Notes under the pieces: model-generated | Told to the model about the DNA's origin: nothing | Seen by the model: the letters and a program-made list of their open reading frames with translations, nothing else | The model's database searches: none | Made by a program: the position numbers and the translations under genes | NCBI GenBank assembly: GCA_050697655.1 | Contig: JBOHAB010000001.1 | Coordinates: forward strand, 1-52,840 | Source of the DNA: Gaiellaceae bacterium | GTDB taxonomy: Bacteria > Actinomycetota > Thermoleophilia > Gaiellales > Gaiellaceae | Direction: 5' to 3' | DNA: 52,840 bases | Shown: positions 44,783-47,422 of the stretch, one piece after another | Position numbering within the stretch: position 1 is the first letter of the stretch | How the letters are laid out: each line of letters begins with the position of its first letter

Positions 44783-47422
44783 CTACCGGCCGGGCCTGTA
44801 GTTGGGAGCCTCCTTGACGATGGAGACGTCGTGCGGATGGCTCTCGCGCTGTCCCGCGGCGGTGACGCGTACGAAGCGGGCGGCCTTCAGCTCCTCGATC
44901 GTGGCCGCGCCGCAGTAACCCATCGCCTGGCGGAGGCCGCCGACGAGCTGGTGGAGGACGTTCCTGAGCGGGCCCTTGTATGCCACGCGGCCCTCGATGC
45001 CCTCGGGGACTAGCTTGCCAACCTCCTCGACATCCTGCTGGAAGTAGCGGTCGCTCGAATGACGCGCGCGCATGGCGCCCACCGACCCCATGCCGCGGTA
45101 CTCCTTGAACTGCTCGCCCTGGTGGAAGACGACCTCGCCGGGGCTCTCGTCCGTCCCGGCCAGGAGACCGCCGAGCATCACCGTGTCCGCGCCTGCGGCG
45201 ATCGCCTTGGCGATGTCGCCGGAGAAGTTAACCCCTCCATCGGAGATGGTTGGCACTCCAAGGCGAGCCGCGGCCTCCGCGCAGTCGTACACCGCAGTCA
45301 CCTGGGGCATTCCGATGCCTGCGACGATCCGGGTCGTGCAGATGGAGTTGTGAACGATCGCGTTGTCCGCGATGAAACTATGCGTGGGACAGTCGACTTC
45401 GAGGTCGTACACCGGCACGGCGAGGCCAAGCTCGCTCCGGCCGAGCTGCTTGATGACCTGGTAGTCAGTCAGGTGCCGCCTTGCGTGCCCGACGTTGAGC
45501 CTCGAGTGGTACACGTCGCGGCAGCGATCGGCTCTCGTGCCCACGAGACCTCCGGCTGTCGGTGGCTCGACTCCGACGTTTGGGAAGCTTCCACCGAGCA
45601 GGAAGCAGAGGACGCCGAACAGCTCCACGAGTCGACGGGACGTGTTCTTGAAGCAGATCCTCCCCCCTGCCTCGACGAATCCGTCGCTGTCGACCAAGCC
45701 GTCGAAGAGGCCTTGGAGATACCGAGGGTCGACTGCCATGTAGCAGGCCGGCAGGTGCTTCTCGTGGCGTTTGCCGAAGTCGGCGAGGAGTCGGGCCCAC
45801 TGGAGGGAGAAAAGATGAACCTCGAGTTTCCCGCCCTGCGGCCGAAGGCTAGGACGTACCCCGGTGGCGTGCTCCACGCAGGTGGCCAGCTTCTCGGCGA
45901 TCGCATCCTCGTCGGACGCGAGCGACCACGTGACGCGACCGATCTGGGAGTTCCGCACGCGATTCGGAAACGAGGCTCCGTCGCCCAGGAACGTGCCAAA
46001 CACGTAGCCGAGCTCGTAGGACTCGCGGATCTTGGTGCGGTAGCGACGAAGACCTGACCCTCGGAGGGCGAACTCGCCCAGATCCACCTCGAAACCGTCG
46101 GGCAACTCGAAAGCGATGTGGCGCGGCGCCAGCATTACCGCGCGATCTGCCTCGGCGAGCGGCATCCAGCCGAGCTTGCTCAGCCCGCGCTTGGTCGGCC
46201 GCTCGAGCGTCGCGACGAAGCCCTTCGAGGCGACCGTGGCGGCGCTGGTCGAAGCGAGATCTCCGACGAAGAAGCGGTGGTCCGACGTGACGACGGTCTC
46301 GCGTGGCGAGGCCACATGCCGGACCGCGATGACTTCGCGCACTCCTGTGCACCACGCTCTCTCAACGGTGACCGGCTCTCCATTCATGTTGATGACGCGG
46401 TCGCCAGGCCGCACGTCCGCGATGTCCTTGTAGCGGGCGTCGGCCATGAGGATTCGTGTTCCCGCGGCGAAGCAGCCGGGGCCCATCCCGACCTTCACAG
46501 CATCGGCACCCGCGTCGATCAGCGCCTCGGTCGCCTCCGGGGTGGCGACGTTGCCGGCCACGACCTCGACGTCGTGCCGGCCCTTCAGCTCCCGCACGGC
46601 CTCGATCACGCCGAGGGAGTGGCCGTGCGACGTGTCGACGACGAGCACGTCGACGTCCTCGTCGACGAGCGCGGCGGCGCGGTCCAGCCCCTCGGGACCG
46701 GTTCCGACCGCGGCGGCGACGCGGAGCCGCCCCTGCTCGTCCTTCGTGGCCAGCGGGTACTTGATCCGCTTCGAGATGTCCTTGACGGTGATGAGGCCCT
46801 TGAGCCGCCCGTCGGGATCGACCACGGGGAGCTTCTCGATCTTGTGCGCGTGGAGGACGGCGCGGGCCTCCTCGAGGGTCGTGCCGACCGGGACGGTCAC
46901 GAGCCCGGCCGCCGTCATCAGCTCCGAGACCCGGCGCCCCGTGTCGTCTTCGAAGCGGAGGTCGCGGTTCGTGAGGATGCCGACGAGGCGCCCGTCCTCG
47001 TCCGTGATCGGCACGCCGGAGATCCTGTAGGTCTCCATGATCTCGAGCGCCGCCGCCACGGGAGCGTCCGGCGGGAGCGTCACCGGCTCGACGATCATTC
47101 CCGCCTCGGAGCGCTTCACCTTGTCCACCTCGGCGGCCTGCTCCTCGACGGAGAGGTTGCGGTGGACGACGCCGATGCCGCCCTCGCGCGCAAGCCCGAT
47201 CGCCGTGCGCGCCTCGGTGACCGTGTCCATGGCCGCCGAGACGATCGGGATCTCGAGCTCGATCGTGCGGGTCAGGCGCGTGCGCGTCGAAACGTCGCTC
47301 GGAAGCACGTCCGACTCGGAAGGAACGAGCAGGACGTCGTCGAACGTGAGCCCTTGCTTGGCGAACTTGCGCTCGAGGGCGAGGAGGCGCTCGATCTCGT
47401 CCTGACGCAGCTCGACACTCAA
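44783..47422 (-). CDS. guaB: IMP dehydrogenase precursor carrying an intein (503-aa exteins + 376-aa intein)
   Basis: The N-extein reads [13 protein letters not shown]…, has a CBS pair, and ends …[12 protein letters not shown]. The C-extein reads [15 protein letters not shown]…GGLLAG…YRGMGS…. Together they rebuild the canonical G-x-GPGSICTTR catalytic loop. Confidence 0.95.
45347..46474 (-). mobile_element. Class 1 intein with LAGLIDADG homing-endonuclease domain inserted in the GuaB active-site loop
   Basis: Residues 317-692 of the precursor. Block A is [13 protein letters not shown]. Block B (TxxH) is VVTSDHRF. The LAGLIDADG motifs are [14 protein letters not shown] and [15 protein letters not shown]. 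The C-terminus is VYDLEVD…[10 protein letters not shown], followed by +1 Ser. Confidence 0.9.

Follow-up and report, generated by a model that had tools for sequence, protein, structure and literature searches.

A probable class-1 intein with a LAGLIDADG homing endonuclease in the catalytic loop of IMP dehydrogenase from a Gaiellaceae bacterium

The guaB gene of a Gaiellaceae bacterium (assembly GCA_050697655.1) is named only 'IMP dehydrogenase' in its source record, and its product of 879 amino acids (aa) could pass for a fusion protein. What, then, is the additional material in this enzyme, how did it get there and can the enzyme work with it? We addressed these questions in a stretch of 52,840 nucleotides (nt; positions 1 to 52,840 of contig JBOHAB010000001.1, hereafter the window), following up a sequence-only reading of the same DNA that had proposed a LAGLIDADG intein. 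Our analysis indicates that the element is very probably a canonical class-1 intein with a double-motif LAGLIDADG endonuclease, lodged in the catalytic loop of GuaB, and that it probably arrived there by homing, with apparent co-conversion of the flanking DNA. The gene and its parts, in window coordinates, are the following.

44783..47422, minus strand: guaB precursor coding sequence, IMP dehydrogenase (IMPDH) containing a CBS pair and split by the intein; 879 aa, TTG start (open reading frame list, TIGR01302 and Pfam)
46475..47422, minus strand: N-extein, amino acids 1-316, ending ...VKVGMGPG (sequence and alignment to intein-less GuaB)
45347..46474, minus strand: intein, 376 aa, HINT splicing domain into which a LAGLIDADG homing-endonuclease domain is inserted (boundaries, family alignment, AlphaFold2 model and Foldseek)
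44783..45346, minus strand: C-extein, amino acids 693-879 plus the stop codon (sequence and alignment to intein-less GuaB)
45338..45340, minus strand: codon of the catalytic Cys of IMPDH, the C of SICTTR, position +3 (direct sequence reading)

The host protein is identified as IMPDH by the equivalog hidden Markov model (HMM) TIGR01302 (IMP_dehydrog; 602.6 bits vs a cut-off of 481.5), which matches the precursor in two pieces breaking at the insert, by the Pfam IMPDH domain (E=6.5e-152) with its two CBS domains, and by the GPG-SICTTR loop that reappears once the intein is removed. The insert corresponds to precursor residues 317-692, with the junctions ...KVGMGPG / CFAAGTRIL...AIVHN / SICTTR, and rejoining of the exteins in silico yields a contiguous IMPDH of 503 aa. 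The catalytic role of the Cys in the GPGSICTTR loop belongs to established IMPDH enzymology, and only two residues, Ser and Ile, separate this Cys from the splice junction, a placement claimed by the sequence-only reading that can be read directly in the sequence. The excess of about 376 residues claimed there proved to be exactly 376. When the spliced 503-aa product was searched against 5.8 billion proteins, the 119 closest intein-less GuaB, 84-93% identical and nearly all exactly 503 aa long (the named ones are from Gaiellaceae), aligned without gaps across the junction, so that the insertion is clean with respect to intein-less orthologues.

The residues expected of a splicing-competent element occupy the following positions.

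46436..46474, minus strand: block with the Cys1 nucleophile (CFAAGTRIL); C1 is family-invariant, and the block aligns with the PI-SceI N-terminus CFAKGTNVLMAD
46265..46294, minus strand: TxxH block (TSDH, intein residues 63-66, with Thr63 and His66); T, D and H are family-invariant
45347..45412, minus strand: blocks F and G with the penultimate His375 and terminal Asn376; HSF, A, N and VHN are family-invariant
45344..45346, minus strand: codon of the +1 Ser (TCC), the C-extein nucleophile; Ala (GCG) in the closest intein-less relatives (allele comparison)

In an alignment of 16 family members spanning 36-83% identity, Cys1, the Thr and Asp-His of block B, the HSF-A-N-VHN residues of blocks F and G and Ser+1 are all invariant, the YLxGLxDGLxDSDG motif is also conserved, and the HN/S junction is present in nearly all of the 128 full-length copies of the family. 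The splicing signatures listed by the sequence-only reading are thus not only present but are those on which the family does not vary. An in-frame insertion, Cys1, TxxH and His-Asn followed by Ser+1 were all found, together with a HINT fold, the latter from the predicted structure, as expected of a class-1 intein.

Profile searches, by contrast, fell short when run as the earlier reading had suggested. The curated Pfam models Hom_end_hint (30.3 vs 32.1), Intein_splicing (24.3 vs 35.8) and LAGLIDADG_3 (17.7 vs 22.5) and the NCBIfam model TIGR01445 (17.7 vs a cut-off of 24.5) all scored below their curated thresholds, a point against the assignment, and HMMs alone would not confirm an intein. 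The matches are still significant by E-value, and a curated cut-off is a database convention rather than a biochemical criterion; other weak NCBIfam matches were to models of the intein-containing Rv2578c, RNR, RpoA'' and DnaB. A sequence search of the PDB recovered PI-SceI weakly (E=1e-3), colinear at block A and both LAGLIDADG motifs. With profiles below threshold and sequence matches to known structures weak, the fold was settled by structure prediction. The AlphaFold2 model, built from 58 homologues, has a mean predicted local distance difference test score of 95.5 and a predicted template modelling (TM) score of 0.93; its top Foldseek match in the PDB is TliVMA 7qsu (E=2e-16, TM 0.69/0.70), followed by PI-SceI, PhoVMA, PI-TkoII and PI-PfuI, the intein crystal structures being matched at E 1e-9 to 1e-16. 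The central domain resembles I-DmoI (target-normalised TM ~0.63, E~3e-7), as well as the endonuclease domains of both PI-SceI and PI-PfuI, and displays the pseudo-dimeric alpha-beta-beta-alpha-beta-beta-alpha fold in the model. In a viral structure library all matches were endonuclease-containing inteins, residing in RNR, polymerases and terminases. The two motifs map as follows.

45971..46012, minus strand: first LAGLIDADG motif, intein residues 155-168, catalytic Asp165 (model helix 153-165; aligns with the PI-SceI motif)
45674..45718, minus strand: second LAGLIDADG motif, intein residues 253-267, catalytic Asp264 (model helix 250-264; aligns with PI-SceI LAGLIDSDGYV)

Both LAGLIDADG helices end in an intact catalytic Asp, the motifs are kept in most family members and the endonuclease domain carries no deletions relative to the family consensus. 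The suggestion that the two motifs might belong to a still intact enzyme therefore gains in substance from the predicted HINT and LAGLIDADG folds and from the selection described below, and the LAGLIDADG endonuclease is probably active.

Whether gene and element are both maintained can be gauged from the ratio of nonsynonymous to synonymous substitution rates (dN/dS), estimated by the method of Nei and Gojobori. For the exteins this ratio is ~0.10 relative to the nearest empty allele (L004), which places the host gene under selection. For the intein, compared with that of another occupied allele (L006; 82% aa identity), it is 0.16 over the whole element, 0.14 in the N-terminal and 0.04 in the C-terminal HINT part, and 0.21 in the endonuclease domain (synonymous divergence, dS, of 0.5, hence unsaturated); values are similar against L001, the one locus recovered when a genome collection was scanned with exact peptide patterns from the window sequence, with 0.19 for the endonuclease domain. 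Host gene and intein are both under purifying selection, which makes a dead gene unlikely and is compatible with an active endonuclease. We accordingly consider it very improbable that the insertion fails to splice and guaB is dead, with guanine nucleotides coming from a paralogue or from salvage encoded elsewhere in the genome. Such a reading can draw on the fact that splicing is predicted from sequence, that 52.8 kb of the genome are in view and that the intein HMMs are below threshold; it is contradicted by the conservation of all splicing residues, by a frame open over 879 codons, by the dN/dS values of exteins and intein and by the change of the +1 residue to Ser, a splicing nucleophile, in a lineage that otherwise has Ala at this position. 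Its place in an operon with guaA is, moreover, retained.

43196..44776, minus strand: guaA (GMP synthase), directly downstream of guaB (open reading frame list; order compared with intein-less loci)

The gene order pfkB-guaB-guaA is common to the window and the intein-less loci compared, and neither a second IMPDH nor a second intein was found in the 52.8-kb window. A pseudogene was rejected on the strength of the open frame and the selection acting on both exteins and intein.

The source being a metagenome-assembled genome and the GC content at third codon positions (GC3) of the intein being lower than that of the host gene, a foreign intein might also have been joined into a Gaiellaceae guaB contig during assembly or binning. 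The probability of this is vanishingly small: an 879-aa protein with 99.7% identity (P0122, 'MAG: IMP dehydrogenase [Gaiellaceae bacterium]') is encoded on an independent 6.2-kb contig from a separate assembly, and because the same allele was thus obtained twice, the intein is not an assembly artefact. The insertion is, moreover, in frame at codon resolution, and L006 shares the haplotype of the sequences flanking it. The chimera was rejected on these three grounds.

How the intein reached this gene is best seen in comparison with the nearest relatives, among which its distribution is sporadic: it is present in one of the 120 close-relative clusters listed. The empty Gaiellaceae guaB site reads ...GGCCCCGGC/GCGATCTGCACGACG..., and the native loop of Gaiellaceae-like proteins is GPGAICTTR in 115/119 cases (P0154-P0272), with Ala before Ile-Cys. 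At the +1 position, Ala accounts for 115 of the 119 intein-less proteins and Thr and Gly for two each; none has Ser, whereas the residue is Ser in every intein-bearing allele. Given that Ala is native here, an intein arriving without co-conversion of its flank would have been left without a +1 nucleophile. We compared DNA along the spliced gene between the window, the empty alleles L002, L004 and L005 and the occupied allele L006, and delineated a tract on either side of the insertion.

45200..45346, minus strand: C-extein part of the tract, with extra divergence from the empty alleles and low GC3 (allele comparison)
46475..46522, minus strand: N-extein part of the tract, the ~48 nt that precede the junction (allele comparison)

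This tract of ~200 nt begins ~48 nt upstream of the junction and ends ~150 nt downstream of it. Within it, window and L004 disagree at 25.1% of positions, compared with 8.8% elsewhere (Fisher p=9e-10, for boundaries set post hoc), while the empty pair L004 and L005 differs by 16.4% vs 13.9% elsewhere (p=0.38). The GC3 of the tract is 0.80, compared with 0.93 in the remainder of the gene. Occupied alleles encode ...AEAA...ISDGGVN where empty ones encode AICTTRVVAGIGV...AQAA...IADGG.Q, and L006, a Gaiellaceae-like allele, shares this flank haplotype with the window. The intein itself has a GC content of 0.652 and a GC3 of 0.816, against 0.698 and 0.921 in the exteins; the impression, originally gained by eye, that the insert is less GC3-biased, which would be in keeping with horizontal arrival, is thus upheld by the counts and extends to the flanks. 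Homing with co-conversion, importing the Ser+1 codon together with the element, would be the simplest reading of the tract.

In L002, a 15-nt tandem duplication (VQGVP repeated) lies at ~5025-5060, just downstream of the insertion site and in a region that is unusually variable between alleles. In the window, ~600 bp (47441-48061) separate guaB from pfkB (48062-49021, minus strand), compared with a pfkB-guaB gap of 37-77 bp in L002, L004 and L005; the extra spacer has a lower GC content (~0.64) and contains, on the opposite strand, an open reading frame (47509-48051) for a protein of 180 aa whose N-terminus resembles a signal peptide and which has no match in Pfam. This spacer may be a small independent insertion adjoining the intein-bearing gene.

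Beyond the Gaiellaceae, the family to which this quite ordinary element belongs is large and has the same insertion site, whether in bacteria, archaea or large viruses. When the insert alone was searched, 201 relatives were returned, nearly all of them within IMPDH-family proteins, and an exhaustive scan of 1.84 billion representatives with phmmer yielded 795 matches at E<=1e-3, of which 140 reached E<=1e-30. The 128 full-length copies among the collected sequences are almost all inserted at G-x-G/S-x-C-x-T-R. An intein in guaB can therefore be called uncommon, as the sequence-only reading had it, with respect to the close relatives listed, but not more widely, given these numbers and a host known since 2009 (PMC2677866). 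The family's source names include Gaiellaceae, Acidimicrobiia, Iamia, Frankiaceae, Chloroflexota, Ktedonobacterales, Deinococcus, Nanoarchaeota and Woesearchaeota, and one JGI record (P0007) is already annotated 'IMP dehydrogenase/GMP reductase/intein/homing endonuclease'. The hosts fall into two size classes, namely CBS-containing IMPDH, with the insert at about residue 305-317, and the commoner proteins of ~350 aa, with the insert at about residue 180; the short hosts include a bona fide GMP reductase (GMPR; P0279, NF003470 450 bits vs a cut-off of 397) as well as CBS-less IMPDH-like proteins. These contiguous metagenomic inteins are homologous to the one described here over their full length (30-82% identity) and in nearly all cases share its site, but most of them reside in the ~350-aa CBS-less hosts and in AT-rich genomes, whereas the host of the window copy is a GuaB with CBS domains from an actinobacterium of 70% GC.

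The family also preserves inteins in various states of decay. The endonuclease motif is degraded in P0050 (LANG) and P0078 (LGVG), the endonuclease has suffered deletions in P0069, P0371 and P0388, and P0413, with 66% identity across its first 71 residues, is a mini-intein of ~150 aa. Empty, full-length, endonuclease-decayed and mini-intein states, that is, the stages of the homing cycle, are all seen at a single site.

Such decay bears on an alternative that we consider possible, if doubtful, namely that the window element is a splicing-competent intein with an inactive endonuclease, a vertical passenger late in the homing cycle whose central domain is kept for the sake of the splicing fold. 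Besides the decayed relatives and the mini-intein, it finds support in the correlation between intein and extein identity (r=0.78) and in the similar dS of intein (0.67) and exteins (0.64) between the window and L006, which is compatible with co-inheritance since the two alleles split. On the other hand, both motifs with their catalytic Asp are intact, the domain has no deletions and evolves with a dN/dS of ~0.2, and overwhelmingly empty close relatives, combined with an imported-looking flank tract, point to fairly recent mobility.

Several further points weigh against homing of an active element with co-conversion. The boundaries of the flank tract were picked after inspection of the data, and divergence between the empty alleles L004 and L002 is also raised in the tract (16% vs 8.7%, p=0.0025), so that part of the tract signal may reflect local variability. 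Ser+1 might alternatively have been fixed by selection after insertion instead of being imported. Across the family, the identity of the intein and that of the C-extein are correlated at the above r, because of which much of the distribution is compatible with vertical descent and loss; with intein identity tracking extein identity in this way, a recent cross-phylum transfer has no specific support and was set aside. Selection on the endonuclease domain could reflect the need for a splicing-competent fold rather than nuclease activity, an intein-free second IMPDH is possible elsewhere in the genome, beyond the visible 52.8 kb, and both splicing and DNA cleavage by this element are predictions from conserved residues and a modelled fold. 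We nevertheless favour a class-1 intein that homes with co-conversion.

The occurrence of the family in viruses suggests a possible route for its spread. A scan of IMG/VR recovered 23 full-length relatives with 30-44% identity, inserted at the same site and free of stop codons, either on contigs of large-phage size, the longest 405 kb, or in bins of giant viruses. The viral copies (L007-L030) lie in IMPDH/GMPR genes for proteins of ~350 aa, on contigs rich in AT (GC content 0.22-0.48) or in GVMAG giant-virus bins. The GenBank phage collection held no close relatives, the inteins found there being 24-32% identical and residing in actinophage terminase and tape-measure genes. Large viruses may thus be a reservoir or a vector of this intein.

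Some relatives occupy other hosts. Distant relatives with ~33-37% identity interrupt a PurZ/PurA-like protein of the adenylosuccinate-synthase type at ...GT(I/M)K(T/H)G/C...HN/STC(S/H)GVGAA (P0364, P0366) and RtcB at ...G(I)xPG/C...HN/S (P0115, P0345, P0378). The lineage has passed between hosts of nucleotide metabolism and of RNA repair. In P0319, P0325 and P0335, removal of the loop intein leaves a second intein-like insert elsewhere in the protein, with the junctions GGIKNPGDV/CVTGDT...SHN/CKAIALGAD, DGGIRN/CYDEETE...GN/SGDAVKAL and YRGMA/CYSDDTE...GN/STALQ as examples, and there are consequently several intein sites in the IMPDH/GMPR family. A 382-aa protein from ENA (P0101) carries a related endonuclease part (60% identity, residues ~140-320) fused to PDZ and peptidase-M50 domains (RseP-like) and may be a chimera of assembly or gene calling, or else an intein fragment that has relocated.

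The conserved residues, read in the light of established intein chemistry, suggest that the element follows the standard class-1 splicing pathway. The guaB gene would be translated as an 879-aa precursor devoid of IMPDH activity, because the 376 residues split the Cys loop. Cys1 would undergo an N-S acyl shift, Ser+1 would attack the resulting thioester to form a branched ester by transesterification, cyclisation of Asn376, assisted by His375, would release the intein, and an O-N shift would restore the native GPG-SICTTR loop in a 503-aa GuaB. With the catalytic loop broken by the insert just two residues ahead of the catalytic Cys, splicing should be a prerequisite of GuaB activity. Once released, the intein would serve as a site-specific endonuclease, cutting intein-less guaB where G-P-G/(S,A)-I-C-T-T-R is encoded, and repair from an intein-bearing copy would insert the element along with some of the flanking extein DNA. 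Efficient splicing, a currently active endonuclease and the origin of the flank tract by co-conversion are each what we infer from the features described above.

A more speculative possibility, which we regard as improbable, is that the intein makes guanine-nucleotide synthesis conditional, acting as a switch that responds, for instance, to redox state. Conditional splicing has been reported for other inteins, and in the precursor Cys1 adjoins the catalytic Cys at +3, whence a Cys1-Cys+3 disulfide or a similar trap might hold GuaB inactive until splicing is permitted. If true, this would help to explain why a single lineage has been kept at one site in bacteria, DPANN archaea, large phages and giant viruses alike.

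Among characterised inteins, the best structural counterparts are PI-SceI, from VMA1 of S. cerevisiae, and the archaeal VMA inteins TliVMA (7qsu) and PhoVMA (7qst), which share the class-1 HINT features (Cys1, TxxH, HN) and a double-motif LAGLIDADG endonuclease and are matched at E 1e-11 to 1e-16. Block A of PI-SceI (CFAKGTNVLMAD) is nearly identical to that of the window intein, and both LAGLIDADG motifs align. The VMA inteins differ in their host, the V-ATPase A subunit rather than IMPDH, in their insertion site and in an overall identity of only ~14-16%; PI-SceI has Cys instead of Ser at +1 and is 454 rather than 376 aa long. Actinobacterial inteins of RecA, DnaB and SufB, such as the Mycobacterium tuberculosis RecA intein PI-MtuI, are likewise LAGLIDADG class-1 elements, inserted at conserved active-site motifs of essential genes of high-GC Actinomycetota, but they occupy other hosts and sites, and no specific sequence relationship to them was detected.

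The IMPDH site has a history of its own. A query presumed to be the N-terminal intein of IMPDH-1 matched a database protein of 130 aa with 100% identity and several relatives. In these proteins (P0415-P0418) the extein ends ...VKVGIGGG/CFVPGT, which is the position of ...VKVGMGPG/CFAAGT in the window, so that IMPDH-1-type inteins presumably share both host family and insertion point with ours. They differ in being split mini-inteins, whereas the window intein is contiguous with an internal LAGLIDADG endonuclease, and BLASTP found no significant similarity between the window intein and P0415 (E=4.5). On both counts the window intein falls outside the IMPDH-1-type lineage, and the IMPDH loop site is used by two distinct intein lineages. 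IMPDH was reported as a then-new intein host from three ocean-metagenome loci (IMPDH-1, -2 and -3) with a single integration point, each of them a split intein whose halves flank a free-standing Vsr-like endonuclease gene (Dassa et al. 2009, PMC2677866); the text of that report does not give the insertion point, and IMPDH and GuaB are absent from the main text of Novikova et al. 2016 (PMC4760082).

Because curated HMMs miss this lineage at their thresholds, the family is probably under-annotated. The contiguous and apparently intact intein of a soil actinobacterium, with Cys1 and Ser+1 and a LAGLIDADG enzyme, is a possible source of splicing and nuclease reagents. More generally, the homing cycle can be seen here in compact form at a single site, with an imported flank apparently supplying Ser+1 to a lineage with Ala, and the catalytic loop of IMPDH/GMPR emerges as a useful marker site for virus-mediated intein traffic. 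Collectively, the element is a textbook example rather than a surprise, and its main value lies in the evidence for co-conversion and the +1 Ser, and in the spread of the family across domains and viruses.

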